A stretch of DNA of 64,000 nt from Pinctada imbricata (taxonomy: Eukaryota). The notes under the pieces were generated by a model. It searched no databases. It saw only the letters and a list, made by a program, of their open reading frames with translations, and was not told where the DNA came from. The stretch spans positions 9,402,974 to 9,466,973 of the forward strand of contig VSWD01000002.1 in the NCBI GenBank assembly GCA_033119305.1. The letters are read 5' to 3'. The stretch's first letter is position 1; each line of letters opens with the position of its first letter. Positions 7,290-60,990 of this stretch are shown here, in pieces. The position numbers and the translations under genes were made by a program.

Positions 7290-8545
7290 TGTACTGTGAA
7301 ATCATTTATTATGTCCCCCATCAGAGAATAGGGGACATATTGCTTTGCTATTGTCGGCTGGTTGGTCCGTCGGTCTGTCAGTCTGTCCTCCACAACAGTT
7401 TCCATTAATTATCTCTAGAATGGATTCACATATTGAAATAAAGTTTGGTATACAGATACATCAAATGAAAATCTAGGTTAAGGGTATATCTGGGTGTGAT
7501 CGAAAAATTTTTGGCAGAGTTATGCCCCTTGGACTTAGAAAAATACCAAAATTTAAGTGTTTCTGTTCAATATCTCTAGAATGGATTCACATATTGAAAT
7601 GAAATTTTATAAACTGATAAATCAAATATAAATCTAGATTAAGTTTATATTTAGGTCCAATCCAACAAATTTTGACAGAGTTATGCCCCTTAGACTTAGA
7701 AAAATACCAAAATTTAAGGGTTTCTGTTCAATATCTCTAGAATGGATTCACATATTGAAATGAAATTTTATAAACTGATAAATCAAATGAAAATCTAGGT
7801 CAAGTTTTCTATTTAGGTCCAATCCAAAAATTTTTGACAGAGTTATGCCCTTTAGACTTAGAAAAATACACAAATTTAAGGGTTTCCGTTTAACATCTTT
7901 AGAATGGATTCAAATATTAAAACGAAATTTTATATACAGATACATCAAATGAAATTCTAGGTCAAGTTCATATTTTGGTCTGATAAAAAAAAATTGACAG
8001 AGTTATGCCCCTTGGACTTAGAAAAATACAAAAATTTAAAGTGCTTCCGTTCAATAACTGTGGAATTGTAACACATTTTGAAATGAAATTTTAGATACAT
8101 CAAACGAAAATCTAGGTCAAGTTCAAAATTGAGTCTGGTCAGAGAATAATGCCAGGTCACAGGGTTATGCCTCTTGACTTGGAAAAATATAAGAATTTAT
8201 GGGTTTCCATTCATTATCTTGCAATGGATTCACCTATTGAATTGAGATTTAGTTTAAAGATTCATCATGAGAAAATCCAGATCAAGTTGAGGTCCAGTCG
8301 AAAAAAAACCAACAAAAAAACAGAGTTATGCCCCTTTGACGTAGAAAAAATTACCCAAAATTAAAGGTTTTCATTCATTTTTACTGCAATGGAAGCATAA
8401 ATTAAAATGACATTTGGTATACAGACATATCTTATGAAAATCAAGACTGTGATAGATTCATTAATACAAATATAAAAACTTGCATTCATAATCAAAGAAG
8501 AAGTAGGGGGACATTTAATGTTTTACAATCATGACTTTAAATTTG
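7290..8545 (-). mobile_element. Pearl/Helentron-like non-autonomous element with the architecture 'hairpin - (GGTC)n microsatellite - about 6 tandem 160-bp satellite monomers'; inverted copy of 40040-41578
   Basis: Palindrome ATGTCCCC..GGGGACAT at 7305-7335; GGTCCGTCGGTCTGTCAGTCTGTCC at 7362-7388; 160-bp period from 7413 to about 8400; far end (about 8500-8540) is the reverse complement of the 40060 end of the other copy. Confidence 0.55.
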
Positions 8546-8672: not shown

Positions 8673-9610
8673 TTAACTCACCTGAGCAAAGCTCAAGTGA
8701 GCTATTGTCATAGTGCTCCGTCCGTCATCCGTCCATCCTCGTCATCCTGTGTAAACTTTTAACTAAGTTTTAACATCTTCTCTACAATGGCTGCACAGAA
8801 TTTCAAAGCACCTCACAGGAAGCTAGTTCTCAAAGTTCTCTACGAAGTTTGTGTTTTTCGTGCCGATCGGTCAACAAATATGGCCGCCGAGGGCTTTGGC
8901 TTATGCATTTTGGACTTCTCCTCTGCAACCGCTGCACAGAATTTCACGAAACCTTACAGGAAGTAAGTACTCAAGGTACTCTTCTAAGTTTGTGTTTTTT
9001 TGCCGATCGGACATCAAATATGGCCGTCCGTGGGCTCTGATTGGCTGACACATTTTCCACTTCTCCTCTGTGTAATTGTTGCACAGAATTTCACGAACCT
9101 TACAAGTAGCAAGTACTCAAGGTCTTCCACCAAGTTTGTGTTTTTCGTGCCGATGATGATCAACAAATATAGGCTGCCGAGGGTTCTGATTGGCTTACAC
9201 ATTTTGGACTTCTCAGAATTTCAGGAAACCTTACTGGAAGCAATTACTCAAAGTCCTCTACAAAGTCTTGCGTTTTTCAATCTGATCAGGTCAACAAATT
9301 TGGCCACTGAGGGCTCTGATTGGCTGATGCATTTTGGACTTCTCATTGCACAGAATTTTACAAAACCTTATAAGAAGCAAGTACTCAAGGTCACCTGCCA
9401 AGTTTGTGTTTTTCATGCAGATTGGTCAACAAAAATGGCTGCCAAGGGCTTTGATTGGCCAAGGCAGTTTCAACATTCTCTGTGACCACTGCATAGAATT
9501 TCATGAAACATTACAGGAAGCAAGTACTCTATTACCTCCACCAATTTGTGTACTATCATATTTCAGTCTGCAACTCAGATGAGTGGTGTGGCCCCCTTGG
9601 GCCTCTTCTT
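8673..9610 (+). mobile_element. Helentron/pearl-like element carrying about 5 units of a 150-bp tandem repeat ('H150' family); uninterrupted paralogue of 55903-58545
   Basis: 5' end TTAACTCACCTGAGCAAAGCTCAAGTGAGCTATT (imperfect hairpin), then a (GTCC)n-like tract CCGTCCGTCATCCGTCC, then repeats containing GCCGATCGGTCAACAAATATGGCCGCCGAGGGCTCTGATTGGCTGA, and a 3' hairpin GGCCCCCTTGGGCC at 9593-9606. Confidence 0.55.
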
Positions 9611-10040
9611 TTCCATTCCTGGCGACAATTGCGTTTATATCAATCTTAAAACATCCACCTTAAAACCCCCCCATGCTAACGGAATAATTGTCACTTATGC
9701 CAAGATGTTGCTGAAATGTGACTGAAGTAAAAGCGGGTTTTGCAAGGTTGGCTTGTGACAAACAGTTGTAAAAACAAAGGTGATAAACTGCACAATTAAA
9801 AAGTAATTAACGAATATGTGTCCATGTTATAAGAAGGTGTTTATACTTCAATTTCCTGTAAAATATGCATGCTTGCTCTGTCATGAAAAGTTGTTCCAAT
9901 TTTCTTGCTTAGATATGCACAATTATTCAGTTTGAATGTTATCCACCAAAACAACGAAAATTGAGCCTCCAAGAAATATAATGATTTCACAGTATACTGC
10001 ACATACACAAATGTTACGACACAAATGTTACCTATTCCAG

Positions 10041-10533
10041 GTTTTAAGTGGCTCAATGCCGGAGTTGGACATGGAGTATCGGGTAAATTCGAACATTGTG
10101 TTGGAGGCAGATAGGCATTTCATAGACAGACACCGTGATGAATCGAACATTGTGATGACCGCAGATAGGCATTTGATAGACAGACACCGTGATGAATCGA
10201 ACATTGTGATGACCGCAGATAGGCATTTGATAGACAGACACCGTGATGAATCGAACATTGTGATGACCGCAGATAGGCATTTGATAGACAGACACCGTGA
10301 TGAATCGAACATTGTGATGGCCGCAGATAGGCATTTGATAGACAGACACCGTGATGAATCGAGCATTTTGGATCCCGGAGATCTTAGTACATATGACCTT
10401 AATGAAGATGGGATTACAGAAAGGGACCTCATAGATATTTTGGCCCAAAATGATTTTGACCTTTACACGAAATTAGGTGCTGAACAGCATATAGAAGAGC
10501 AACAGTCAATGGAAACAAATGAAATGAAAGAAG
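10041..10533 (+). CDS. Gene 1, upstream coding exon (phase 0 start, ends after 1 base of a codon); contains five 60-bp repeats encoding DESNIVMTADRHLIDRHR
   Basis: Acceptor TTATTCCAG|GTT at 10038-40; open frame; donor AAG|GTATTA at 10534. The leftover base G plus GT at 11386-87 gives an in-frame Gly joining to the big exon. Confidence 0.4.
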
Positions 10534-10565
10534 GTATTATCATTTATACTGCAAGCATTGATGCA

Positions 10566-10900
10566 TGAAAGAATCAGGCAGGGGTGATACATCAAAATTT
10601 TTACACTAACTTTTTATTTACGTTTTGAGGTACAAATTAAAAATGAAATTCATTTCTGAAGTTAGCAATAATGAATGATAAAGGGTATGAAAAAAAATGG
10701 CGGGAAAATTTTGCTAAATGCATGTATAATTCAACCTAATTTAGTGCCAATTTTATAACTTTGTTACACCATCCAAGTATGTAGAAAATTCCTTCAGGAC
10801 GTATGTTTGGGGGTGATCTGAACATATATCGAAAGAGAAAAGTTTGGAAAAAATTAGAAGGTATTTCTACTCGACCCTGTACTAAAGTTGATTTATGCTC
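10566..10900 (+). mobile_element. About 330-bp MITE, copy 1 (right end replaced by a fragment of the H150 family)
   Basis: Near-identical to 20937-21290 over about 300 bp (AAGAATCAGGCAGGGG...CATCCAAGTATGTAGAAAATTCCTTCAGGAC...GAAGGTATTTC). Confidence 0.5.
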
Positions 10901-11095
10901 ACCTGAGTACTTTTTACAGTGTCTGTCCATCACATTCACAACATTCATAAACATCACATTCACAACATTACCACATAGATATATGCAGCAAGCAACTTCA
11001 TAGGAAGTCAGTACTTTCTTCATACTCAAGGTCATCTACCACAGTCATATTTTTCATGCAAATGTTATAACAGTGGTGGGTAATCTTGCAATGCA
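10895..11095 (+). mobile_element. Truncated solo unit of the H150 Helentron-like family, lying in the gene 1 intron
   Basis: GCTCACCTGAGTAC followed by a GTCTGTCCATC microsatellite remnant and one degenerate 150-bp unit (AGGAAGTCAGTACTTTCTTCATACTCAAGGTCATCTACCACAGTCATATTTTTCATGCA). Confidence 0.4.
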
Positions 11096-11385
11096 GAACA
11101 CTCGATTTTCCTATAATTTTGTGTAAATTGTATTACATGCATTTATCACAAAAATGGGAATGTATTTCAGTGTAAAGATGTCTTAGCTCGGAGTTTTATC
11201 CAAAATAAGAGAAACGATATCTTTTTTATAAAGCCAAAAAATGAACATTGGCATGATTCACGTAGATGAAAGAGAAAGTATAATACCGATCGTGTTTATG
11301 TGTTAAACAAAGCTTACATTCATCTTATTTTGGATACCGCTTCAGTATTTCATCTTTTATGTTTTATTTTGTTTTTCTTTTACAG

Positions 11386-14300
11386 GTTCTGTGAAAGAAA
11401 GATTTGTCATAAATAAGTATTTCCCCCCTGACTTCTCAGCAGCCTACTTTGATCCCAAAGCCCGAGGTATGAGAGGCAAGGCAGTCAGACATAGGAAATG
11501 TAGCTATTCACCCACAGCAGGCCTATCTACTGACTTTACTGAATCTGGGGTCATACCCAACCTTAAGGAAGATGTCCCGGTCTCATCAGAAGGTTTCCAT
11601 GGAAACGACATTGACCTCATATCCCTGGAGTATCAATCAGAGTCTTTTGTACCTGACGAATCAGCCTTTATGGAGTATCAATCAGAACCTTTTATAAATG
11701 ACAAATCAGTATTTAGTCCAGGAAGGGTTGATGTATTTGGACAGTCTTCTGAGTTTAAGCCAACATCACCTGCTTATAGTCCAGTCTCTCCTTTTTACAG
11801 TCCAACATCACCAGCCTATAGTCCAACATCACCAGCCTATATTCAACCTTTTACATCCTCTAGTTTGACATCAAAAGTTAGTTCAATATCAAATGCATTT
11901 GCACCAAGGGCTCAGTCAATGTGGAAGAATCCAAACGGAGAACCAATTCCTGGAGATGGAGATAGTGACAAATCTCCCAAGAGAAAAAAGAAGAAATTCC
12001 CTCCAGATGGAAGAAAAGATTCACCGTCAAGTTATGCCAGAAAGTCTGCACCTGTTGCTGATAGTATACTCGAAATGTATGGAGACCTTAACAGTTCTAG
12101 TGATCTCAGCAATACAGAGATAGAGGTGGTCTCTGAAGAACCACCGTGGGTAAAAACTGCCGCGGCAAAAGATGAAGAATTCAAGAAAGATATCAGACAA
12201 GAGGATGTGATGCTTCATAGTGATAAGAGATTGTGGTCTGAAACTGAGGAGGGACGTATGAAGAGATTGCGTTCTGAACTTGAGGAGGAATATAGAAAGA
12301 GATTGTGTTCTGAAACTGATGAGGGATATAGAATGTTAATAAGTATGAGGGAAGGAAAAGGAGGGAAAGGTCTGGAAAAAGGGGGAGCAATGCGAGAACT
12401 GAAAACAGAGGACTGTTGTTATCATATTCAGGCGGAGAAAAAGAAACAGAAAAAGGGAGGAAAACAGTTAGCTACAAAAGCAGCTAGGAAATCAGCTCCA
12501 GCCTCAGGTGGAGTCTTTGGAGGCAGTAGTGACAGTGGCAGCAGTGACAGTGACAGCAGCGACAAAGATTCTTCAAAGGATGGTAAATTGACGGGAAAAG
12601 TAGAGAGGAAAGTACTTGCAACAAAAGCAGCTAGAAAAGCGGCTCCAGGAGCAGGAGGGGTCCATACAAGCAGTAGTGACAGTAGTGACAGTGAAAGCAG
12701 CGACAAAGATTCTTCAAAGGATGTTAAATTGACGGGAAAAATAGAGAGGAAAGTACTTGCAACAAAAGCAGCTAGAAAAGCGGCTCCAGGAGCAGGAGGG
12801 GTCCATACAAGCAGTAGTGATAGTAGTGACAGTGAAAGCAGCGACAAAGATTCTTCAAAGGATGGTAAATTGACGGGAAAAGTAGAGAGGAAAGTACTTG
12901 CAACAAAAGCAGCTAGAAAAGCGGCTCCAGGAGCAGGAGGGGTCCATACAAGCAGTAGTGACAGTAGTGACAGTGAAAGCAGCGACAAAGATTCTTCAAA
13001 GGATGTTAAATTGACGGGAAAAGTAGAGAGGAAAGTACTTGCAACAAAAGCAGCTAGAAAAGCGGCTCCAGGAGCAGGAGGGGTCCATACAAGCAGTAGT
13101 GACAGTAGTGACAGTGAAAGCAGCGACAAAGATTCTTCAAAGGATGTTAAATTGACGGGAAAAGTAGGGAGGAAAGTACTTGCAACAAAAGCAGCTAGAA
13201 AAGCGGCTCCAGGAGCAGGAGGGGTCCATACAAGCAGTAGTGACAGTAGTGACAGTGAAAGCAGCGACAAAGATTCTTCAAAGGATGTTAAATTGACAGG
13301 AAAAGTAGGGAGGAAAGTACTTGCAACAAAAGCAGCTAGAAAAGCGGCTCCAGGAGCAGGAGGGGTCCATACAAGCAGTAGTGACAGTAGTGACAGTGAC
13401 AGCAGTGACGACAGTGACTGGGTTAGTAGTTACGGTTTATTGGAAGAAAATCGAGTTCAGCACCAAGGGGTTGGGCCTCAGGGAAAATGGGATGGAAAAG
13501 GAGGGGGAATTAGGATTGAAACAGAAGAAGACAGAAAATCTGCTCAAGCCCCTGATAAGGATTCAGCTGGTAGCAGCAACATGAGCATCAGTTGTAGTAG
13601 TGATGGGAGTGAAGGTGTAGAAAAGGAAATATCATCTCAGCCTCGGAGTGGTCTAGGCTGGAGCTCCTCAGGGAAAGGTGCAGAAAAGCAAATATCATCT
13701 CAGCCTCCGGGGGGTTTGGGCTGGAGCTCTGAAGGGAAAGGTGCTGAAAATGAAGTGGCAGCTCTGACTGATGCTAACGGAGTAATGTTTAACAGTCTTG
13801 GAGTTATTGATGGTACTTCAAATGTAAAAGGTGTGTTTTCAGGGATGGGTTGGGAGGCAGATGATAGAGGGTCAGGAAGTGTAGTGATGGGAAGGAAAGG
13901 GTGGGTAGCAAGAGGAGGATGGTCTGGAGGTAGAGGGGCCCAAATATGGGGAGGGGTAAGAGGAAGGGGAAGAGGAAGAGGAAGGGCTGTTAGGCACAGG
14001 GGTATGGGTAGAGGAAGGGGCACCGGAAGGAGAGGAGGAAATACAAAAGGAACAATAGCTGCAAAGACGTCATCCCTTGTGGAGTATAGGGATTCAGGAT
14101 CAGAGCGAGAAGAAGAACGGGATGAGGATCAAAGGAAGATAGAGGATCTAGGGCGATCTGAAAAAAGATCAAGAGAGAGAGATAGAAGAAGAGAGAGATC
14201 TAGGTCTAGAGAAAGAAGAAGTGGGAGATTAAGATCCAGGAGTTTCAGTCCCTGTGTGATTAGTGCAGGATGGAGTGGATCTTCTCATCAAAGGTCACTA

Positions 14301-15165
14301 CGTAGGTCAAGAAGTCGATCTTCTCCTACCAGGAAAAGAGTTCACTCAAGATCTTTGTCAAGAAGTAGGTCTAGAAGAGATAGAGACCAATTTAAGTCAA
14401 GGTCAAAGTCAAGAAGTAGATCAATAAGGAGGATGGGCTACTCTAGATCCAGGACAAGAAGTAGGTCAAGAAGGAGGACGAGCTACTCCAGATCCAGGTC
14501 AAGAAGTAGGATGGATTACTCAAGATCTAGGACAAGAAGTAGGTCAAGAAGGAGGATGGATTACTCCAGATTTAGGACAAGAAATAGGTCAAGAAGGAGG
14601 AAGGACTACTCCAGATCTAGGACAAGAAGTAGGTCAAGAGGGAGGGACTACTCCAGATCTAGGACAAGAAGGAAGGACTACTCCAGATCTAGTACAAGAA
14701 GTAGGTCAAGAAGGAAGGACTACTCCAGATCTAGGACAAGAAGTAGGTCAAGGAAGAGGGACTACTTTAGATCTAGGACTAGAAGTATGTCAAGAAGGAA
14801 GGACTACTCCAGATCTATGACAAGAAGTAGGTCGAGAAGAATAGACTACTCCAGACCTAGGACAAGAAGTAGGTCAAGACGTCACTATGATAGAAAGACA
14901 AGACAACATAATAGATCCAGACCAAGAAGGTGGTCCAGGACTGTCAGCCCATACAGACAAAAAGACAGACGTAACCTCAGACACAGACATTCTGAATACA
15001 GAACAAAAAGTCCCGAATATGGACGCAGATCCAGAAGTCCAAAATATAGACCAAGGTCAAGAAGTCCAGATTACAGACCACGGCCAGTGAGCTCTGAGTA
15101 TGGACCTGCCTTGAGAAGTGATATGTATGGAGGCTTGATTACTGGAATGTCAAGGACATGTAAAG
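11386..15165 (+). CDS. Gene 1, large 3.78 kb coding exon. It encodes a low-complexity protein with CTD-like heptads, a K/E-rich segment, seven 47-aa repeats, a Gly-rich segment and a long RS/'DYSRSRTRSRSRR' domain. It looks like an SR-related nuclear protein; family not recognised
   Basis: 1,260-codon open frame in an AT-rich genome; polypyrimidine tract and acceptor TTTTCTTTTACAG|GTTCTG at 11385; donor AAAG|GTATGT at 15166; coding periodicity is maintained through the repeats. Confidence 0.8.
12440..13430 (+). repeat. Seven near-identical 141-bp in-frame tandem repeats inside the gene 1 exon (KVERKVLATKAARKAAPGAGGVHTSSSDSSDSESSDKDSSKDVKLTG)
   Basis: Direct reading; units differ by 0-3 nt. 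Confidence 0.9.
14440..14890 (+). repeat. About ten 45-bp in-frame repeats encoding (M/K)DYSRSRTRSRSRRR (the RS-domain core)
   Basis: Direct reading of the ORF translation and DNA. Confidence 0.85.
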
Positions 15166-15242
15166 GTATGTTGAGGAAAAATGAAGAGTATCAATTAATT
15201 TAAAAAAAAAAAAGAAATTGAAGACCAAGTAAGTATTGGATA

Positions 15243-15345
15243 TACGCCGAAAACAATTCATTCTTAAAGATATTGGACAGTTTGAGGCCCGCAGGGCCGA
15301 AAACTGTCCAATATCTTTAAGAATGAATTGTTTGAGGCGTAAACC
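15243..15345. repeat. Near-perfect 100-bp palindrome (hairpin arms of about 40 bp around CGCAGG)
   Basis: AAAACAATTCATTCTTAAAGATATTGGACAGTTTGAGGCC / GGCCGAAAACTGTCCAATATCTTTAAGAATGAATTGTTT. Confidence 0.7.
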
Positions 15346-16159
15346 GTACTTAAAACATTGATCACTATTCAAAGTGGCATGACCTTTGACTTTGTTCTTA
15401 TTATGTTAATTGCCTTTACTGTAATGAAATGTAATCACTTCAGGTTCTAACATTCTCGCTACTAGCAGTAGGGAGGCGTTTATATAAGAAGATAACGAAG
15501 ATGAAATTTTTAATTTAAAAAAAAGTTGTGACAAATTATGACGCAGATTCCGTAAACCAAGACGAAATTTGATGCAATTTTTGGGAAAAAACCAACGAGA
15601 ATACTTTGCGTGATGACGATTTAGTTGAAGCTTCTTTGGATATATAGAATAAAAGGGCGTGTCTCTAAAAATTTCCTTTTCCGGACAAGCAAGAAATAAT
15701 ATGGTGCCTTTAAATATCGAAAAGAAATCAGTGGGGACGATCAACTTACTATGTGCAAGGTTAAATGAAAGAAACAATTCAGGAAGATATTTTGAAGGGG
15801 TCTAGTTCGAAAAACCAGACCTAAACCGAGGGGGGGGGGGGGCTGGGGGACTGGGTCAAAATAACCGTCAAAGGCTGGATTTAGGTAGGTTTTTTCGGAC
15901 TAGAAAAGTCGAGCAAAAATCTTAAATATACAGCAAAATTATAAAGATGGGGAAAAAATAGACCGAAGAAGAAAACGGGCTGAACTATAGTGTCTCTTAC
16001 ATTGTCATTTCCGACACAACGGCCGATTTTTTTTTAGATATATAAGATTGTGCTGGATTTTGTCAACTCCGAAAAATATAGCAAAAGATTTGAAAACATG
16101 GAATTCTTGTCGCGTGAGTTCTAAATAAGGATTGTTACGGTTGTCCTGTAGATGTCAAA

Positions 16160-16255
16160 GTAAATTTACCTGTGACTGTCCAATATTCAATCTAGGTCGC
16201 GTATATTTTTTCTAATAAACGCGACCTAGATTTGATATTGGACAGTCAAAGATAA
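16160..16255. repeat. Second palindrome sharing the GATATTGGACAGT core (arms GACTGTCCAATATTCAATCTAGGTCGCG / CGCGACCTAGATTTGATATTGGACAGTC)
   Basis: Direct reading. Confidence 0.7.
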
Positions 16256-17009
16256 ATTTCGGACTGTTCGAACAAAGGCATGACGTCACATCAATGTTTT
16301 AAATGTAAAGATGAAACATGTTCATTATGGTTAACTTTTGTCAAGATGAAGTATTAAGTTCCAGTGTCGAGGTTAAAAATTGAAAACATTCATGAGGGGG
16401 TGGACAGGATGAAAGGGAGGAGGGAGAAGGGATATTTGTGCCCCTCTTCTTTGTGACTGTCCCCTCTTCCCTCCCCATTCATGCATGGTACAGTAAACTT
16501 TTGATTTATAATTGTGATATTGGAGTTACTCTGGCTGTTTCTTTGGAACATCATGGTAAAATTGATTATGGATCGTTCTCTGAGTATTGCATGTTATATA
16601 ATATTGTCTAGCTTACCTGGTCTCACTCCCATATTGGGAGTTCGCTTCTTTTCATATGGTGGAGGTTTTTGTTTGTTTGCTTTGGTTCCTGTTTTATCCT
16701 GATTTTGTATGCCTTCGGTTTCTGATTTTCTGATTTATCAATTTTTGTATACAGGGATATGGTCTTTATCCATATTTATCATTATTGATATAAAAGATGA
16801 ATCTATTTTTAATGTTATGGATAAAATGAATGGTTCCGAGCCATTATATTGATATGAATCTTTTTTCTCAATATTGTATTGGATATATCTATCTGTGCTT
16901 ATTGTAATCAAAGATATTTAAATATAGTAGAAAATATGTCTTAAAAAATTTTTGTATGATATGATTCAATGTAGACTTCCATAGTACATGTATATGATGT
17001 ATACTACAG

Positions 17010-17077
17010 GTATATGGGAAGGTATTGTGACCAAGCACCTCACTGTTCATATAGACAAACTACCCTCACCTGTAAAT
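17010..17077 (+). CDS. Gene 1, candidate 68-bp exon (..G IWEGIVTKHLTVHIDKLPSPVN)
   Basis: Acceptor TACTACAG|GT at 17009; donor AAT|GTAAGT at 17078; its phase (needs 1 base from upstream) matches the end phase of exon 11386-15165. Confidence 0.45.
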
Positions 17078-17371
17078 GTAAGTATATGCGGAATTACATG
17101 TCCTAAGCTATTAATTTCTTTTGCAAATTGGACGTATCGCACCTTCTTTTTTATGCTGTTTGATCAACGATAGAAGGCATTTTGTAATTTTTCTGTCAAA
17201 AATTTTAACCATGCATGTAACTTTTGTATAGTTTGGTTATAAGGCTTTCATATTTCTCATGCATATTCCTTTTGGCAAATTTAAATAGACGTCTTTTCGG
17301 TATCAAGCTGTGACCTTATGACCCTTACCATGCTAGGAGTTTGACTTTGCCTACTCACAATAGAAATTTTA

Positions 17372-17530
17372 AACGTGGAAATTTTCGCATGACGGTAAAT
17401 TTTGCATTTTTTGCAAATATAGGGATTTTGTGAAAATTTCCCCCACGTGAAAATATCCCCTTTGAATTCTTACAATGGGAAAGACATTTTTATCGCAAAT
17501 ATTTCCCCTACACGAAAAGTCTTAATGTAA
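17372..17530. mobile_element. MITE-like dispersed repeat (AAACGTGG family), copy 2, in a gene 1 intron
   Basis: Alignment by eye with 2035-2135 and 19358-19545. Confidence 0.4.
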
Positions 17531-18488
17531 TAATCGAATAAATATATTTGAAATCATGATAAACATTTAGTTTTGTTGCCCTTTCATTAGCTCTTTTATT
17601 ATCACAATCTGTCTGTATATAGCTCTTTGTGGTAATAGTGCCAAGAGCTAATGCCTTACCCCTGGAATTAAAGTTTATTAATTTTATAATAGCAAATTAA
17701 CATTTCTGGAAACTGAACAAGAATGCTAGATTTCACCACTATGATATGATAAATATGGAAAGGAGCAGGTTCAGTTCCATGGAAAATCTGCCCTAATTTT
17801 AGAATGTTTTGGATTTCGAATGTATTTCGTTTTAAGGAAGTTAAATGTGTGGTTATTAGAAATACCAAATAAATATTTTAATTTATGCCAATACACTGAA
17901 AGATACGGCTTCAAAATCGGCTTAAAATCGTAAATTGCTGAAAAATCGTAAGAAATTGGCATAATTCTGGCCAAGCTTAATGAGAAAAGTAGGGCGCCAT
18001 GCATTCCTCACCCAAAATAATTTTCACATAAATAGTTAAATTTGCAATTTATCTTTCGATCTACATAAAATTTATTTTGGGTAAGGGTTAGCACCTATAA
18101 TAAATTTAAAGATAAATGTTAAAAATATGGCAATTTTCCTTCATTTTCCGTCATGCAGAGCAAATGACGTCAAAATATGACGTCATAACTCATGCACGTG
18201 ACGTTTTGAAAACGAAAAATATTTATTTTCTATTTTGGCAGGTATTTGAGATAAATATAAAAGATTATGAATCATAATTTTCATAAAATTATTTTTCGCA
18301 AAAATTTAGGGCCGATTTTGGGTGTTTGTGAACCTACCCCTTTATGGAGAATCTAGTGATTAAAGCTGATGATGTCTTTGTAATGTGTACCTGACTCAGT
18401 TACTGGAAAAAAAAATGAATGAAAATATAAATAAATAATATGGAAAATTGAAGATTGAGATTTATGGAGATTTTGTGTTATGTCACAG

Positions 18489-18588
18489 AATGAGCACTGG
18501 GAACTTACAGATGACATGATGTCATGTATAGGCGTGTCTGTGGAGAAAGTCAAAAACATACTAAGTGGACAGGGACTCAACTCACTAG
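18489..18588 (+). CDS. Gene 1, candidate 100-bp exon (NEHWELTDDMMSCIGVSVEKVKNILSGQGLNSL + 1 base)
   Basis: Acceptor TGTCACAG|AAT at 18488; donor TAG|GTTTGT at 18589; phase 0 start matches the phase 0 end of the previous exon. Confidence 0.45.
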
Positions 18589-18952
18589 GTTTGTCCTTAA
18601 TATCTATTCTGGACAGTTATAATTAATAAATGTAGTATAATTAATCAGTAATGTGTCAGCTTATAGTAATTAGGATCAATATATGTTAGAAATGTCCAAC
18701 AGTAAAGAAAAATAAAGATAAAACTTGTTTTCATTAAGGATTTTGGTGTCGAATTCTTCATTAAGGTGGCACAGCTGTATTTCAGTTATTTTTGGGTCCA
18801 TTAATTTCTTGTCAAATAATATCAAAACCATGCTTTTGAGAATTTCAAGTTCTGTAAATAAAAATGTGTAAACATTTTTATGAGAAAAATTCATTCTGAG
18901 GTTAAAGCAAATTGTTAACCTCACTTATAATTACGCTTATTTCCTATTGTAG

Positions 18953-19281
18953 GAGCATCAACAGAACAACTTGTGTACAGAATAATTGCCACCTTACTGG
19001 TTTGTGTTCATCAGTTCCGATATGCGTTACACCGAGACTGCCTGATGTTATCCCCCCTTGATACCCTTTATCATCAGGACATTACGATTAAATGTTCCGA
19101 GGACACTATGAAAGTATACCTGACGGAAACTTGGTGTGTGGAGTACCGTTTTCCAACCTCTGCATTTGATTGGCTGATGAGGATGAAACGTGATTGGTCG
19201 TATTTGATTAGCCATTTGGAAATTGCTAGAAGTCAGAAGGCGTTGTCTTTAGACTTACTCAAAGAGTTTCTTCAAAACTAA
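18953..19281 (+). CDS. Gene 1, terminal coding exon (G ASTEQLVYRIIATLL...DWLMRMKRDWSYLISHLEIARSQKALSLDLLKEFLQN*)
   Basis: Acceptor CCTATTGTAG|GAG at 18952; the 1-base carry-over from exon 18489-18588 restores the frame of ORF 18973..19281; stop at 19279-81. Confidence 0.5.
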
Positions 19282-19357: not shown

Positions 19358-19545
19358 AAACGTGGAAATATTCTCACACTGGGGTAAATTTTCGCGCTTT
19401 TTGCGTTTGTTTTATTGTCGCAAAAATAACCATCGCGTGAAAATTTCTCCCCGTATAAAAGACTCAAAGGAGTATTCCCAATTTTGTCAAAATTACCCGA
19501 ACGCTTACTGTTTCAACGGTCATTTCGCGAAAATTCGGCAAATAT
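19358..19545. mobile_element. MITE-like dispersed repeat (AAACGTGG family), copy 3, about 80 bp after the gene 1 stop codon
   Basis: GTAAACGTGGAAATATTCTC...GGGGTAAATTTTCGCG...CGCGTGAAAATTTCTCCCC. Confidence 0.4.
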
Positions 19546-20936: not shown

Positions 20937-21290
20937 TTAAGTGTATGTGAGCATAAGAATCAGGCAGGGGGGGATACATACAAAATTTTGCACAACTTTT
21001 TATTTCTGTTCTGAGACATATATGGGGTACAAATAAACATAAGAAATTAGAATTATTTCTCAATGTAGCAGTGGTGAAGCAAGATATTCACCTCATAATT
21101 TATAAAGGATAATGAAAGGAAAAATGGGGGGAAAATTTATATAATTCAACCAAATTTAGTGCCTTTATAACTTTTTTCACCATCCAAGTATGTAGAAAAT
21201 TCCTTCAGGACATATGTTTGGGGGGTGATCTGAGCACATTTCCAAAGAGAAAAGTTTTGCAAAAATTTGAAGGTATTTCACCCTGCCTGA
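20937..21290. mobile_element. About 350-bp MITE, copy 2, with 14-bp TIRs AGAATCAGGCAGGG / CCCTGCCTGATTCT
   Basis: TIRs read directly; the body is near-identical to 10566-10900. Confidence 0.6.
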
Positions 21291-36729: not shown

Positions 36730-39549
36730 ATAATTTGGTTTGAAGGTATCTAGATGGAACCCTTCCGTATTATTTCAATGCTTTTCATATATGACATTTT
36801 GAGAATAGATTTCAACTCATTCGAAAATTTCTGTTATCAAAACTTCTTGAAATTTCTATACCGCTGGTCCTGTAGCATCATATTCTACCCATCTTGCTAC
36901 GCCTTTCGGTGAATTTTTGGAAACAACTTTACCACTCTTTGACCATATAACATTGTTTAGACTGAGGATCACTGACGAGGGTTAAGTACTCGAAACGTAC
37001 ATGCTGCAACTTTATCTGTTCTTAAATGATACTATTGAATTTGAAGACGTTTAACATTTTAAAAGTTAATTCTTAGTTTATTGTGCTGGACCCTGATGTA
37101 GCATATATTTTGGATATCAAAGAAAAAATGGTTTCCGACTATGCCAGTATAATTGCAAATCCCAAATAGTGTTGTTATTCGAATTACTAGTGCACAACCC
37201 TCCCATCTGTTAAGTTACCAAGCAGTCCAGTATAATTGTTAAGTATAAAAGCCACCTCATTGTAAGATCCCTCCCTATTAATTTTAGCTTTTCACTTTCA
37301 TTCACTGATAATGATGACGAAAATCAAAATGTGCACCAGACACCCTCTGACCTTACCTGATATTGATGTTGAGTTTGGTAGCATTGTTATTACGTCTACC
37401 TACATGAACTGTAAAATATTGTATTGGAAAAGCTGTCACTGTGCGACCAACAGAAAACTATAGTTATATGACGTTCAAAAATGTATATTTCATAATATTT
37501 TAATGTATATTATATTATAATATTATATAAGTAATTTGTATCAACCAATCAGATTGCTAGCTAACGGTTCAATATTTTACGATATTGCACAGCTGTGCGC
37601 CTCGCTTTTGATTTACATCTAAAATTGGGAGGAAATGAATGAATTACTCACGATTGAGTAACGATTCCAATAAATCATATTAAGTGCACGTGTGTATATG
37701 AAAATCTGAATTTGAAAATGACTGTACATTGATGTCATTAAGCCAGTTTAGGACACTGCATGTAGATATACTATGCAGCTATGTACATTATGTCTATAAT
37801 AAACATTTCCTCCAATTTTACGATCGACTCCCTATATTCCTGGAATATTATGAATTTGAAACCTTTCTCTATGTAAAAGAAAGTTGTAACAGTATCAGCC
37901 AATGTAAGTTTCAATATCAAAGGAACATTTAAGCTCTCATTTGCTGAAATAAGCCGCTCAGTTCACAGTTTACATTCTTTGAAATTGATCTGTACAAGGA
38001 ACGTTATCGTATGTCATAGCCGTGGGTGAATATACAAGTACTGAATGACAGAGATCTGTCGAGCATTTGTCTTTTGATTTTCAGAAATCTGACATTCCTG
38101 TAAACGGCCATGTTAGAGGTAAGTTGATAGGCTTGAATACATAAAAGAGGGTTGCTAATTAGCATGTCTAGAATATGAAAGGAAGCATTTTTTTAATTGA
38201 AATTCAATTTATGAGTCATTGAAGTGTTCCACATCGAAACCGTCTTGAACATAATTTCAAGCCAATTTTAATGCAATAGACACGTGTTTCGGATAGTAAA
38301 TCCTCATCAACGGTACTAGTACTTAATGCCAAAGTGACACAGTCAAATAATTTCAGTAGCGTGTTAAACGTTTTCAAATTCATTAGCATCATTTTAGCTT
38401 TTAAATTAACAGCATGGACCAGACATGCACGTTTCGGGTAATAAGTTATGTTTTATCTTTTTTATTTCCATCTCTGTCTAGTTTTCATTCCGTCAAATTC
38501 AAATGAATACTAGTAATATTTAGTCTGTCAGCTTGAAGATGAAGAATTTATACTCTCCAAGTTGTTGTTATCTACTATACAATTAGGCCGAGGTTAACCA
38601 ATGCCTGACCAGGTCTGTAAAGTCACGAGTAGACCGAAATCGAAAGTCAGTAACTGCTTTATTAAATTATCAGGATTTTATGAACATTTGCATTGTAATG
38701 ATACGCGAAGTCAAAGATCAGGAATTATTACCGATTTTGCTTATTTCTGATTGATGGAGACGCTGTTTGATAGAGTGTACCTCAGAGTTAGTTGACCGCT
38801 TACGCTCCAAAGCGGTCTATTCGGGATTAGCGCGTGCGGGACCAGCGCGTGCGTTGATTTTTGTAGTGTTAGATCTTTGCCTAAGTACATGTAATAATAT
38901 TCCATATTTTTGAGAGTTTGAATAAAAATGTCTTGATGTACATTGATAAAGTAATATGGATATAGGATGGATCAGAATAGCTAAATTATTCAGAAAATTT
39001 AAAAAGAGCTGGCGAGCGGCAGCGAGCCAAATCATATTTTGAAATCGACCGAAAAATTGTAGATGGATGGTAAAAAATGTTGCTATTTTAAACAATGTTA
39101 ATGCATCATAGAATATTGTGATAGGGGGGGGGGGGTGAAAGGGGGGGGGGGCACAAACATGGTTGTGCCCCCGCTTTTCAAAGTGGGAAGGCTGCCCCCT
39201 TCTCCTACGCCCTTGTTGGTGTATACTACTTTGGCAGTGTATAAATGTGTTGACCAGTAGCCTGTTTCACAAAAATACTTTCGAACAATTTCAGGAATTT
39301 TCGTAACGCTTGATTGCTCAGTTCTACTTGCAGAAATTTGCGAAGTTTTGTTTCTGAATGTACCGGTATATTTAGTACGTAGAAATGATACAAGAATACT
39401 TTATATATATTACATATATACAGCCTGAACAGAAAACACTCTGAACCCTATGTTAAATGACGAAATTCCATCAAATTTTCGTAAGAATTTTTGTGAATGA
39501 ATGACAAATATGGATAATGACCATATCCCTGTCTACAGTACAAAATCGA

Positions 39550-39735
39550 TAATTCAGAAAATCAGAAACCGAAGGCATACAAAATCAGGATAAAACAGGA
39601 ACCAAAGCAAACAAAAACAAAAACCTCCACCATATGAAAAGAAGCGAACTCCCGATATGAGAGTGAGACCAGGTGCCCAGGAAGAGTAAGCATCTCCTGC
39701 TTGCATGCAACACCCGTCGCAGAAATGATGAGTAA
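39550..39735 (+). mobile_element. SINE-like repeat, subfamily with CAGAAAATCAGAAACCGAAGGCATACAAAATCAGGATAAAA...GAGACCAGGTGCCCAGGAAGAGTAAGCATCTCCTGCTTGCATGCAACACCCGTCGC; contains a local 40-bp duplication
   Basis: Copies at 60815-60990 (+) and 16590-16735 (-), plus a fragment at 47075-47130. Confidence 0.55.
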
Positions 39736-40039: not shown

Positions 40040-41578
40040 CAAGTTAAAAGTCATGTTTGTAAAATGCCCCCCTGCCCCTTCTGTGATTAAAGTCTGTCAA
40101 AACTTTATACTTGCATTGATACAACCTATGGGGGTATAAAGTAACAGTTTCATTTCAATATGTAACTCCACTCAAGAGATATTGAACAGAAACCCTGAAG
40201 TTTTGGTATTTTTCAAAGTGCAAGGGGCATAACTCTGTCCAAATTTTTTTGATCGGACCTAAATATGAACTTGACCTAGATTTTCATTTGATGTGTCTGT
40301 ATACAAAATTTCATTTTTATATGTAACTCCACTCAAGAGATATTGAACGGAAACCCTGAAATTTTGGTATTTTTCGAAGTGCAAGGGGCATTACTCTGTC
40401 AAAATTTTGTTGATTGGACCCAAATAAAAACTTGACCTAGATTGTCATTTGATGTATCCATATACAAAATTTCATTTCAATATGTAACTCCACTCAAGAG
40501 ATATTGAACGGAAACCCTGAAATTTTGGGTTTTTTCGAAGTGCAAGGGGCATTACTCTGTCAAAATTTTGTTGATTGGACCCAAAGAAAAACTTGACCTA
40601 GATTGTCATTTGATGTATCCGTATACAAAATTTCATTTCAATATGTAACTCAACTCAAGAGATATTGAACGGAAACCCTGAAATTTTGGTTTTTTTTCGA
40701 AGTGCAAGGGGCATAACTCTGTCCAAATTTTTTCGATCGGACCTTAATACGAACTTGACCTGGATTTTCATTTGATGTGTCTGTATACAAAATTTCATTT
40801 CAATATGTAACTCCATTCAAGAGATAATGAACGGAAACCCTGAAATTTTGGTATTTTTTGAAGTGCAAGGGGCATAACTCTGTCAAAATTTTTTTGATCG
40901 GACCCAAATATGAACTTGACCTAAATTTTTGTTTGATGTGACTGTATACAAAATTTCATTTCAATATGTGAATCCACTCAAGAGATATTGAACGGAAACC
41001 CTGAAATTTTGGTATTTTTCGAAGTGCAAGGGGCATAACTCTGTCAAAATTTTTTCGATCGGACCTTAATACGAACTTGACCTGGATTTTCATTTGATGT
41101 GTCTGTATACAAAATTTCATTTCAATATGTAACTCCATTCAAGAGATATTGAACGGAAACCCTGAAATTTTGGTATTTTTCGAAATGCAAGGGGCATAAC
41201 TCTGTCCAAATTTTTTTGATCGGACCCAAATATGAACTTGACCTAGATTTTTGTTTGATGTGTCTGTATACAAAATTTCATTTCAATATGTAACTCCATT
41301 CAAGAGATATTGAACGGAAACCCTGAAATTTTGGTATTTTTCGAAATGCAAGGGGCATAACTCTGTCAAAATTTTTTGATCGGACCCAAATGTGAACTTG
41401 ACCTAGATTTTTGTTTGATGTGTCTGTATACCAAATTTCATTTCAATATGTGAATCCATTCCAGAGATATTGAACGGAAACTGATGTCGCGGACCGACCG
41501 ACAGACCGACCGACCGACCGACCGACAGCGGCAAACCTATATGTCCCCTCTTCTTCGAAGGGGGGCATAAAAAGTAAA
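40040..41578 (+). mobile_element. Pearl/Helentron-like element: about 9 tandem 161-bp satellite monomers, then a (GACC)n microsatellite, then terminal hairpin TATATGTCCCCTC..GAAGGGGGGCATA; inverted copy of 7290-8545
   Basis: Monomer is the reverse complement of the 7413-8400 monomer; the 5' end at 40060 contains ATGCCCCCC, which is inverted relative to the 3' hairpin. Confidence 0.6.
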
Positions 41579-46283: not shown

Positions 46284-47199
46284 CATTCTAATGCAATCTA
46301 TATGTTTGTGTATATGAGGCGAAATGTGACGTAAGCAACGTCAAAGCCTAGCATGTTCTCGTTTTACCGTCGTAACTAAGGAGCAAATAACCAACGAAAA
46401 TCGACGTTAAAGCGACGTTGCATTAGAATACAAAATTTACGAAGTCAATTATTAAAAATCGTATTTAATGCTTTTATTTTAGGTAAAAGTGTTTATAGAG
46501 GTCTGCATTCTCTAGGTTTTATATTTTACCCCAAAACACTCAGTAATGGAATAAAAGATATCCTGACGATAATCTCAACAGCTTCACAATAGAGCACAGG
46601 ATTGAGCATCGACGGCCCCTTAGCAAGCTAGAGGTGGGACCAGGTGCCCGTGAGGAGTAAGCATCCCCTGTTGGCTAGCCGCACCCGCACACTCAGTATC
46701 CATGGTACATTCTTCAAAGAGGGAATACTAGGGATAACGCTTACCGAGCAAAACATGATATTTATGTCATAGATTTCATTTAACAATGCTACTGAATCGA
46801 CCCTACATAAATTTTGAGCCGCACACTCTCTGCAAAATAAATGCTAAAAAATTCTAGACATAAAACCAGGGGGTGCTACTGAAATACATTTGCCTGTGTC
46901 AGAAAATCACTTCGGCATTTAATAGTGCTGATGAGGATTTACCATCCATGGTGCATTGAAATCGGTTTGATATGTTCTTCAAGAAGGTCAAGAGTTGGAA
47001 CATTTCCGTATTATCCAATACTAAAACGTATGCATAACAAATATTGATAATGACCATATCCCTGTATATAGCACAAAATCGAAAATTCAGAAAATCAGAA
47101 ACCGAAGGCATACAAAATCATGAAATATTGTAATCATAAATTATGACATGTCTTTATACATAATTTTTAATAGTAACTATTGAATTATGCTTGGATGAT

Positions 47200-56519: not shown

Positions 56520-57214
56520 ATTGTCATAGCGCGCCGTCCGTCGTCCGTCGTTGTCGTCCGTCCGGCGTAAACTTTTAACATTTTCGACATCTCCTCTGCA
56601 ATTGCTGCATGGAATATCACCGAACCTTACAGGAAGGAAGTACTCAAGGTCCTCTACCAAGTTTGGGTTTTTCATGCCGAACGGTCAACAAATATGGCCA
56701 CCTAGGGCTCTGATTGGCTGACACATTTTCGACATCTCCTCTGCAACCGCTGCACAGAATTTCATGAAACTTTACAGGAAATAAGTAGTCAAGGTCCTCT
56801 ACCAAATTTGTTTTTTTTTTGTGCCGATCGGTCAACAAATATGGCCGCCGGGGGCTCTGATTGGCTGACACATTTTCGACATCTCCTCTGCAACCGCTGC
56901 ACAGAATTTCATGAAACTTTACAGGAAGGAAGTACTCAAGGTCCTCTACCAAGTTTGTGTTTTTTTTTCTTTGTGCCGATTGGTCAACAAATATGGCCGC
57001 CGAGGGCTCTGATTGGCTGACACATTTTCGACATCTCCTCTGCAACCGCTGCACAGAATTTCATGAAACTTTACAGGAAGGAAGTACTCAAGGTCCTCTA
57101 CCAAGTTTGTGTTTTTTTTTTTTTGTGCCGATTGGTCAACAAATATGGCCGCCGAGGGCTCTGATTGGCTGACACATTTTCGACATCTCCTCTGCAACCG
57201 CTGCACAGAATTTC

Positions 57215-57654
57215 ATGAAACTTTACAAACCGGCAGAGCACGGACTGTATTACGCATGCCCTCTTTTTATATCCATTTACATATTCATCTGTGTCTCTGG
57301 GGCCTCTGCGTTTCGCGGTCTTGTTTGTGTGATGTCATCTTACAGTGAGGAGGTTGTTTTACACCACATTTGTACGTTCTTCGAGACCTCTGGGTAATTG
57401 GAGAAGTGAGAGGGTTGTGCGCACGTAATCCAGGATAACCACACCATTTGCTACTTGCGTGACAGATGGCCGTCCAAAGTCGGCACCGGTTACCCATTGG
57501 TCTCGTCGGTTTATGTGTAGTCTTTTGTGTTTGATGTTTACATGTCGTGTGTCTCTTTTCCGTCTCGTGCTGTACTCGTCTTTTGTGTTTTTGCATCGGG
57601 TGTTTTGGTGTTTTACTGTTGATGCTGCAACGGGGTCTTGTTGGAGATCTCCTC
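57215..57654 (-). mobile_element. SINE-like F1 element inserted into a 150-bp repeat unit, with about 6 bp TTTACA duplicated at both junctions
   Basis: Unit sequence ..GAAACTTTACAGGAAGG.. is split into ..AACTTTACAAaccggcagag[element]cttctTTTTACAAGAAGGAAG.. Confidence 0.5.
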
Positions 57655-60209: not shown

Positions 60210-60780
60210 CCCCTATCGGCTCGCCGGAGGGGACTTATAGTTTCCACCCCGTATGTCTGTCTGTCCGTCACACTTTAGTTTTGCAGACTTTTTTCGCTGT
60301 CGTTGCATATATTCATAACTCATTTTGGAATATCTCAGTGTGATACAGATCAAGTATGAGTTTTGTCCCGATTGACCTATGCTTACAAGAGGTATGGCCC
60401 TTGGACTTAACAAATGTTATGAAATTCTCAGTTTTCCGGACTTTTCTTCCATGGCATTGCAGATATTGAAATGATATTTTATATGTGAATACATCTTAGT
60501 GTTATACAGATCAAATTCGAGTTTGGTTTTAATTGACCCATTATTACAGGAGTTATACCCTTGCACTTAACAAATTGTTTGAAATTCTGAGTTTTCCGAT
60601 CTTTTTTCTCCATGTTATTGCAGATACTGAAAAAATTATACGTGAATACATCTCAGATTAAGTTCGATTTTTTTTTTCGATTGACCACATTTGACAGGAA
60701 TTATTGTCCCTGGACTTAGCAAATTTCATGAAATTTACAGTTTCCGGACTTTTCTTGGCTGTTGTAGATTACAAATATGG
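60210..60780 (-). mobile_element. Pearl-like element: hairpin AGTCCCCTATCGGCTCGCCGGAGGGGACT, (GTCT/GTCC)n tract, then about 3 tandem 150-190-bp units; related units also at 61200-61470
   Basis: Direct reading; the leader matches the 22852 and 2190 leaders. Confidence 0.45.
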
Positions 60781-60814
60781 ATAATGACCATATCCCCATA
60801 TACAGCACATAATC

Positions 60815-60990
60815 GATGATTCAGAAAATCACAAACCGAAGGCATACAAAATCAGGATAAAATAGGAACAAGAGCAAACAAACAAAACACCTCCACACAT
60901 GAAAAGAAGCGAACTCCCGAAATGGAAGTGAGACCAGGTGCCCAGGAAGAGTCAGCATCTCCTGCTTGCATGCAACACCCGTCGCTTCAA
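60815..60990 (+). mobile_element. SINE-like repeat (same subfamily as 39550-39735)
   Basis: About 90% identity by eye over 170 bp. Confidence 0.55.

Follow-up and report, generated by a model that had tools for sequence, protein, structure and literature searches.

A spliced Pinctada imbricata gene encoding a disordered mosaic of near-copies of histone tails and other nuclear protein segments

What kind of protein does a long, open, spliced reading frame encode when it resembles no annotated protein family? We address this question for a locus of Pinctada imbricata that lies in a 64,000-nucleotide (nt) stretch of contig VSWD01000002.1 (assembly GCA_033119305.1, positions 9,402,974 to 9,466,973 of the forward strand), which we call the window and whose positions are used throughout. 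A first-pass annotation made from the letters alone had described positions 10041 to 19281 as a five-exon gene for a serine/arginine (SR)-type protein and had recognized no protein family in it. We find that the product of exons 1 and 2 is a long protein, disordered over nearly its whole length, that belongs to an unannotated conserved family and forms a mosaic of near-copies of short, disordered stretches found in core nuclear machines. In place of no family, there are relatives and a series of segments resembling histone H3, histone H4, the C-terminal domain (CTD) of RNA polymerase II (Pol II), BRR2 and SLU7. Our preferred reading, to which we assign a probability of about one-half, is that the protein would be nuclear and would act as a multivalent pseudo-substrate or pseudo-ligand, serving as a decoy or a scaffold.

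The window is AT rich, with a GC content of about 0.30 to 0.37 and an island of 0.46 at 12 to 14 kb. Inside this island (0.46 versus about 0.33 around it) lies an uninterrupted open reading frame (ORF) of 1,270 codons on the plus strand (11391-15203); outside repeats, no other ORF in the 64 kb is longer than about 160 codons. Exon 2, the main coding exon (11386-15165, plus strand, 3,780 nt), runs from phase 1 to phase 1. Its acceptor, at 11385/11386, is strong, with a long polypyrimidine tract and the AG at 11384-11385, and its donor, AAAG/GTATGT, lies at 15165/15166 with an in-frame stop 12 codons beyond it (15201-15203). The long ORF, the GC island and the strong splice signals confirm the earlier call of this segment as coding, and 11386-15165 is a real coding exon. 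Exon 1 (10056-10533, plus strand) opens with an ATG at 10056, encodes a look-alike of the BRR2 N terminus and an acidic segment, and ends in phase 1 at the donor GAAG/GTATTA. The join of exon 1 to exon 2 is supported because the BRR2-like motif and the ERF and FDPK.R.M motifs, which flank the 10533/11386 intron in the window, share single ORFs in the relatives described below. Tandem repeats make up much of the sequence, with 5.2 copies of a 54-nt unit in exon 1, 6.2 copies of a 141-nt unit that are 98% identical, arginine/serine (RS) repeats of 42 to 45 nt, and a 21-nt repeat that encodes CTD heptads. The gene is thus, as first proposed, uncharacterized, spliced and repeat rich, and it carries an RS domain.

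The H3-like segments are the most extensive of the look-alikes. The first H3-tail copy (12450-12515, plus strand) matches H3 residues 18 to 35 at 17 of 18 positions. Downstream lies the 141-nt tandem array (12534-13409, plus strand), each unit of which encodes a look-alike of H3 13 to 35 and an acidic serine cluster, TSSSDSSDSESSDKDSSKD. The six array copies begin with GK(V/I)(E/G) and are identical to H3 13 to 35 at 16 of 23 residues. When an H3-like copy was compared with PDB, all 60 listed matches were histone H3, as peptides or nucleosome chains (E values of 6e-4 to 5e-3, with 8e-4 for the first copy). From the composition of the protein itself, the probability that such a segment would occur anywhere in the whole protein is 6e-17 for the first H3 copy and 2e-11 for the H3 repeat. 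A lone H3K27-type ARKSAP motif, SYARKSAPVADS (12030-12065, plus strand), is the counterpart of a family module, HWAAR(R/K)SAPVAE. The DNA of the first copy differs from that of the array copies at 64 of 141 nt. Over the 16-residue H3 stretch that the first copy and the repeats share, there are 5 synonymous and 3 replacement codon differences, and within LATKAARK there are three synonymous changes and no replacements; this small codon sample fits selection on the peptide. The gene is not a histone H3 gene, as it has the tail and lacks the fold: Pfam detected no histone domain (alpha1 to alpha3), and in tblastn full-length H3 matched the window at residues 14 to 36 only. The tail regions of the histone queries used for tblastn agree with the PDB alignments.

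Exon 1 begins with LDMEYRVNSNIVLEADRHFIDRHRDE (10065-10142, plus strand), a look-alike of BRR2 residues 9 to 35 with 17 of 27 residues identical, and continues with four 54-nt tandem copies encoding SNIVM(T/A)ADRHLIDRHRDE (10143-10358, plus strand), which are partial repeats of the BRR2-like motif. Human BRR2 (SNRNP200) was the only real match of exon 1 in PDB (residues 9 to 96, E value of 7e-4), and an 11-residue stretch of the motif is invariant in the relatives. The motif does not mark a genuine BRR2 gene: no helicase exons were found in the window or in the 10-kb flanks of the relatives, and a tblastn search with BRR2 (a query whose N terminus agrees with the PDB alignment) matched the window and the relatives' loci only at residues 7 to 32. 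Four CTD-type heptads of the form YSPTSP(A/S) lie in exon 2 (11757-11840, plus strand) and match PF05001 with E values of 0.004 to 0.013 and scores of 16 to 18 bits, under the curated cutoff of 20.3. When the first 380 residues of the exon 2 product were searched against a database, RPB1 CTD proteins dominated; there were at least 227 matches (best E value of 7.5e-33), and the CTD repeat was present in all 120 that were listed. We rejected an RPB1 identity, since the heptads come without polymerase domains; no catalytic RPB1 domains (PF04997-PF04998 and related) were detected, and the match is confined to the CTD repeat, below the cutoff.

Three further modules are matched at lower significance. 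The segment EGKGGKGLEKGGAMRELK (12351-12404, plus strand) resembles histone H4 residues 3 to 20 (RGKGGKGLGKGGAKRHRK) at 13 of 18 positions. Histone H4 accounted for 56 of its 57 PDB matches (best E value of 0.043), and GKGGKGLGKGG is present exactly in one relative, P0122. At the start of exon 2, KERFVINKYFPPDF (11394-11435, plus strand) represents an ERF module of the family, for which the family counterpart is VRERFSKEMDFAPDF (tblastn E value of 0.004). It is also like the YJU2 N terminus (SERKVLNKYYPPDF), for which the evidence is weak: all five of its PDB matches were YJU2/CWC16, but with E values of 0.47 to 0.88. Next to it, SAAYFDPKARGMR (11436-11474, plus strand) is a look-alike of an SLU7 motif (human SLU7 282 to 294, SAYYDPKTRAMR) with 8 of 12 residues identical. 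For the copy in the relative P0133, human SLU7 273 to 296 was the sole meaningful PDB match (E value of 0.0076), and Pfam Slu7 was matched at an E value of 0.08. The composition-only probabilities are 1.5e-11 for BRR2, 3e-8 for H4, 2e-7 for YJU2 and 1e-4 for SLU7. Once it is considered how many targets a proteome offers, the H3, BRR2 and CTD identities are secure and the H4 identity is probable, the SLU7 identity rests on the relatives, and the YJU2 identity is only suggestive.

The last part of exon 2 is of a different kind. It contains an arginine-glycine-glycine (RGG)/GR box (13911-14039, plus strand), RGGWSGGRGAQIWGGVRGRGRGRGRAVRHRGMGRGRGTGRRGG, and an RS domain (14154-15086, plus strand) of 311 residues with 37% arginine and 24% serine, built from 42- to 45-nt repeats that encode DYSRSRTRSRSRR(R/K)K. 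With its alternating Arg and Ser and its RSRSR repeats, this domain is that of an SR-related protein, so the earlier SR-type label holds for the last quarter of exon 2; it does not extend to the whole protein, which has no RNA recognition motif (RRM) or other fold. No folded domain was detected by Pfam in the product of exons 1 and 2, and no RRM appeared in a Pfam scan at E values up to 1 to 10, which excludes a classical SR protein (SRSF). No PDB matches were obtained for the stretch of exon 2 that precedes the CTD heptads, for its GLGW repeats or for the residues around its acidic/aromatic repeats. The short segment GRKGWVAR (13956-13979) is reminiscent of the YG.RKGW.PR motif near the N terminus of SNW1/SKIP (Prp45), a likeness for which PDB gave no match.

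We searched 1.84 billion representative proteins with HMMER, without a word index, using the residues encoded by 11841-14072. Two of the six matches were genuine (P0122, E value of 6e-8, and P0123, E value of 4e-6). A second profile built from these two proteins, with all H3, H4, CTD and low-complexity words masked, retrieved among the matches listed four proteins close to P0122 (P0129-P0132) and a more distant one (P0133, E value of 1e-32). The family set consists of P0122, P0129-P0132, P0123/P0127 and P0133, with loci L001-L005. All of the relatives come from European Nucleotide Archive (ENA) metagenome assemblies, on contigs of 0.5 to 6 Mb; none of the proteins is named, and none is in NCBI or UniRef. 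Among the matches listed from two protein libraries, there was no named homolog, an exact look-up in public assemblies gave no record of the ORF product, and a literature search found no description of a protein that combines these motifs.

Each relative is a single ORF of about 2.6 to 2.9 kb with a constant order of modules. Phenylalanine-glycine (FG) repeats come first, followed by LAPPE...YEKELE, ALPDDDDD, FDPKSR.M and a block like H3 2 to 35 or 15 to 37. An acidic run, a second KA(S/A)RKSAP, GPSIVHRKVFG and a serine run then lead to PELAHWAAR(R/K)SAPVAE, and the ORF continues with an H4 tail or an RGG box, CTD heptads, ERFS(K/R)E(M/L)D, and a 12-residue block with (A/G)DRSLI. The slot between SAPVAE and the CTD holds the H4 tail in the P0122 group and the RGG box in P0123 and P0133. 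In an alignment of the three lineages, which are 43 to 47% identical, the invariant islands are exactly the mimic modules, with 20 of 20 columns invariant in one of them, and the spacers diverge freely. The ratio of nonsynonymous to synonymous substitution rates (dN/dS) is 0.51 between two loci of one sample that are about 95% identical and 0.24 to 0.40 between lineages, where dS is saturated. By these measures, the family as a whole is seen to be under purifying selection. We tried GPSIVHRKVFG as a look-alike of the H4 K20 region and rejected it on unsupportive statistics, and the relatives have no Pfam nucleoporin match.

Flanking exons of the relatives carry further H3-like segments. A conserved upstream exon (L001 7007-7426, L002 3029-3253, L004 5418-5795) holds one to three copies of T(R/S)QTAR(K/R/I)S, look-alikes of H3 1 to 10. 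The upstream sequence GGTRTRQTARRS(TGGKAPRKML) is like H3 1 to 21 with K4R and K9R, and in the relatives' upstream look-alikes of H3 1 to 10 the K4 and K9 positions are replaced. Across the relatives' copies, the H3K9 position is K, R, I, M, Y or C, and in the big exon it reads TARYS, TARCS or TARMS. A downstream exon encodes (A/S)KKSSP..GGVK.PHRYRPGT.ALREIR, like H3 26 to 56 including the alphaN region (L003 5950-6051, L004 13201-13324, L005 14566-14670). It is phase compatible with the preceding donor in L004 and has no counterpart in L001, which lacks the collinear segment. The relatives are not H3 variants with a histone fold, as no fold was found within 10 kb and the similarity ends near the alphaN region. 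In three loci, the big exon has a consensus donor in phase 1 soon after the BRR2-like motif, and exon 1 of the window gene also ends in phase 1. Two loci of sample ERZ25069865 (L001 and L005) are collinear and about 95.5% identical on separate megabase-scale contigs of similar coverage; the pair represents two haplotypes that have diverged or else a recent segmental duplication in which the family gene was copied. Short ENA contigs also gave a 112-residue ORF (P0126, P0128) with three successive degenerate H3-tail copies that ends in PHRYRPGP, which may represent either a different mode of H3-tail multiplication or a pseudogene of H3.

The window gene and its relatives have in common the H3 15 to 35 block, the AR(K/R)SAPVA(E/D) block, SLU7-like FDPK(S/A)R.M, the ERF block, the CTD heptads, an H4 tail or RGG box (the window gene has both), the BRR2-like YEYK.N.N.VL that ends an exon in phase 1, and acidic linkers after the H3 blocks. 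Confined to the relatives are the leading FG repeats, LAPPE.../ALPDDDD, GPSIVHRKVFG, and the H3 1-21-like and H3 26-56-like exons; confined to the window gene are the RS domain, the five BRR2-like copies and the seven long H3 copies. At the DNA level, the sole match between the window and the ENA loci is a 43-nt H3-tail block at 88% identity, in which the first H3 copy is aligned with the H3-like block of L001. The transposon signatures common to the ENA loci are not present in the window. With this match alone and no shared transposon signatures, the source organisms are therefore not close.

How might such a protein work? The RS domain and a basic KRKKKK stretch would direct it to the nucleus, probably to speckle-like bodies, where its repeated motifs could be recognized by the same writers, erasers and readers as the real tails. 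Candidate partners of the H3 copies are the H3K27/ARKS-directed methyltransferases, kinases, and chromodomain or EED-type readers. The other modules might engage the H4-tail acetylation machinery, CTD kinases, CTD-binding domains, arginine methyltransferases and PRP8-centered spliceosome surfaces. Being multivalent, the motifs would allow the protein either to titrate these factors off chromatin and spliceosomes as a decoy or to concentrate them as a scaffold. The acidic serine clusters beside the basic H3 blocks resemble CK2-type sites and could gate access; once phosphorylated, they and the RS domain might switch the availability of the motifs. More tentatively, and on balance we doubt it, the relatives and the window gene could together represent a dedicated animal "tail-decoy" family of giant disordered proteins that collect H3, H4, Pol II, BRR2 and SLU7 tails, carry FG, RGG or RS transport motifs as well, and buffer or colocalize the machinery of cotranscriptional modification and splicing. 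K-to-M and K-to-I changes at H3K9-type sites inhibit SET-domain enzymes, and the K9-changed copies of the relatives (TARMS, TARIS, TARYS and TARRS) might be built-in methyltransferase inhibitors of that sort, like oncohistones and EZHIP.

Several observations weigh against a pseudo-substrate, decoy or scaffold. Its mechanism is read from sequence. All but one of the seven long H3 copies come from a tandem expansion that is very recent; since they are 98% identical, they are not independent evidence, and in these array copies S28 is replaced by A and K36 is lost. The individual E values for H4 (0.04) and YJU2 (0.47) are weak, and the window's own SLU7-like copy alone went undetected in the PDB search. 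The order of modules differs from that of the relatives. By tblastn, no FG repeats were found in the 64-kb window (queries P0122, P0123 and P0133), and neither the GPSIVHRKVFG block nor the flanking H3-like exons were found at the window gene. The window gene may accordingly be a paralog that has been rearranged and is possibly decaying.

An ordinary SR-related protein of speckles or splicing, of the SRRM2 or Nopp140 type, in which the look-alikes would be fragments, inherited or shuffled in, that act as generic charged, low-complexity spacer for condensates and not as specific mimics, could also account for the large RS domain, the RGG box, the alternation of acidic-serine and K/A-rich blocks, the want of a folded domain, and H3-like repeats without S28 and K36. 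We think this unlikely, since the invariant islands of the family are the mimic modules while the spacers are free to diverge, H3 identities of 17 of 18 and 20 of 20 far exceed any compositional need, and the relatives hold the modules without an RS domain. The H3 and H4 tails, the H3 alphaN region, RGG boxes and RS domains are import signals for receptors of the importin-beta family, to which FG repeats such as those of the relatives also bind, and the protein might instead be a hub or sponge for nuclear transport receptors that clamps or buffers karyopherins rather than chromatin enzymes. The FG repeats N-terminal to the H3/H4 blocks in every relative, the downstream H3 26-56-like exon in three loci, and the RGG box and RS domain of the window gene are all compatible with that role; nevertheless, we know of no import function for the CTD heptads or the BRR2, SLU7 and YJU2 motifs, and the window gene has no FG repeats, so we rate this explanation as quite unlikely. 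Least probable, in our estimate, is that the gene is an evolutionary by-product, a young chimeric or rearranged paralog made by exon shuffling and tandem duplication that is open but nonfunctional. Its modules are scrambled relative to the family, its tandem expansions are recent (96 to 98% identity), it sits amid satellites and repeats, and no orthologue of exactly this architecture is present in any protein library searched. Shuffling is favored because the exon borders in play are all phase 1, and it is plausible that the mosaic arose by shuffling of phase-1 exons. Yet about 800 nonrepeat codons have stayed open in AT-rich DNA with intact splice signals, LATKAARK avoids replacement changes between the old and new H3 copies, and the family appears to be under purifying selection. 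A mobile-element origin of the current gene is unlikely, given that we see no ORF for a reverse transcriptase, an integrase or another transposon protein and that the relatives have conserved flanking exons.

The remaining alternative concerns the 3' end, where the first-pass annotation had three more exons (17010-17077, 18489-18588 and 18953-19281, plus strand) and a globular C-terminal domain encoded by 17010-19281. Joined with 10056-10533 and 11386-15165, these exons have AG/GT borders throughout and give 4,755 nt without an internal stop, a single open frame of 1,584 codons in the spliced product; the phases are compatible, and the arithmetic was correct. The strong 15165 donor, with a stop 12 codons into the intron, also looks as a real exon end should. 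The accompanying argument that four compatible junctions would be improbable by chance did not survive a count of exon chains made with splice-site thresholds no stricter than the weakest sites in that model. From the 15165 donor onward, 157 alternative chains, each with at most three additional exons, keep the frame open to a stop. The best of them adds 512 nt, compared with 497 nt for the proposed chain, and 22% of 36 strong GT sites elsewhere in the window (both strands) give a chain of at least 497 coding nt. Since control donors do equally well this often, the phase compatibility of exons 3 to 5 is weak evidence, and the pyrimidine tract at the acceptor of exon 3 is weak (8 of 17). For the C-terminal 165 residues, there were no Pfam matches, no PDB matches beyond those to the unrelated potempin E (E values of 0.04 to 0.07), no relative in a word search of 5.8 billion proteins, and no counterpart in the flanks of the ENA relatives. 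A single-sequence AlphaFold model of the region had a mean predicted local distance difference test (pLDDT) score of 44, too poor for a fold search, and the notion of a globular domain there finds no backing. Independent support is limited to exons 1 and 2 of the five; exons 3 to 5 are possible 3' exons but unsupported, and we hold the full five-exon model, globular domain included, to be improbable.

Short-motif mimicry of histone tails is already known as a kind, mainly from viruses and from a few cellular proteins with a single motif of 4 to 10 residues. JARID2 K116 and the G9a automethylation site are endogenous ARKS-type histone mimics, and influenza NS1 carries ARSK, a viral mimic of the H3 tail. 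EZHIP reportedly is a nonhistone protein whose H3K27-like motif competes with or regulates H3-directed enzymes. A precedent for the mechanism proposed here is NOP16, a cellular protein that mimics H3K27, binding EED and JMJD3 and reducing H3K27me3 (10.1101/2023.06.13.544862). The ARKS motif of SARS-CoV-2 ORF8 is a viral mimic of the H3 tail (10.1101/2021.11.10.468057), and viral histone mimics, a further precedent, sequester readers (PMC6028506). Like the endogenous mimics (NOP16, EZHIP, JARID2 and G9a), the window gene places an ARKS-type motif in a nonhistone protein, and NOP16 and EZHIP have no sequence relationship to it. Whereas the endogenous mimics are otherwise unrelated proteins with single motifs of about 4 to 10 residues, the window family has copies of 18 to 34 residues, repeated up to seven times, alongside H4, CTD and spliceosomal motifs. 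The window protein shares with the viral mimics a disordered, short-motif mimicry of the H3 tail but differs in being the product of a spliced cellular gene with conserved cellular relatives, longer mimicry and several targets.

Other likenesses are partial. Proteins of the SRRM2 type and the Nopp140/Treacle type have long RS or acidic-serine/basic K/A-rich blocks in a wholly disordered chain, and the window protein resembles them in its long RS domain, CK2-type acidic serine clusters and K/A-rich blocks; its basic blocks are specific H3 copies, unlike the generic K/A/P stretches of the Nopp140/Treacle type. YSPTSP(A/S) heptads are common to the window gene, the RPB1 CTD and a Mytilus coruscus protein annotated as "USP7" (P0115), of which the window gene has only four heptads and no polymerase domains. 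P0115 is a MATH-domain protein that ends in about 25 Pol II CTD-type heptads, and CTD repeats therefore occur in nonpolymerase proteins of at least one bivalve. What appears to be new is the length and multiplicity of the H3 mimicry and its combination, within one conserved cellular family, with look-alikes of H4, CTD, BRR2 and SLU7. Should the enzymes that act on the real tails also read these modules, the family would provide a natural and genetically encoded means of competing for, or concentrating, regulators of chromatin, transcription and splicing. Cellular buffering of tail-directed enzymes would then become directly testable, with ready-made multivalent pseudo-substrates at hand. The locus also illustrates that standard domain annotation reports nothing where the informative content is short linear motifs alone.

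The surroundings of the gene are rich in repeats. A 27-nt satellite (8-1534) of about 55 copies with 95 to 98% identity contains a spurious 486-codon ORF of SNVTLLLFL repeats. The antisense ORFs of 280, 134 and 131 codons (12428-13270 and 10028-10448, minus strand) lie wholly within the exon 2 and exon 1 tandem repeats, which keep them open; they are no evidence of antisense genes. Three copies of a miniature inverted-repeat transposable element (MITE) had been listed in or next to the introns and 3' end, of which 2035-2141 is weakly similar to the copy at 19358 (about 19458), at 72% over 109 nt, and no other pair is similar. Two arrays of a 161-nt satellite, at 7306-8450 (plus strand) and 40148-41573 (inverted), are 82 to 87% complementary and about 32 kb apart, and they bracket the gene and much of the window. 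A tandem repeat family of 130 to 147 nt, with the repeating translation "...CNRCTEFHETLQE.STQG...", occurs at 8768-9453, just upstream of exon 1, and at 56582-58460. A 73% match to a segment of intron 1 (10569-10867) lies at 20955-21279. The proposed intron 2 contains a dispersed, roughly 170-nt element (16615-16783), of which there are copies with 87 to 93% identity at 39500-39674, 60773-60939 and 47039-47123, all on the minus strand.

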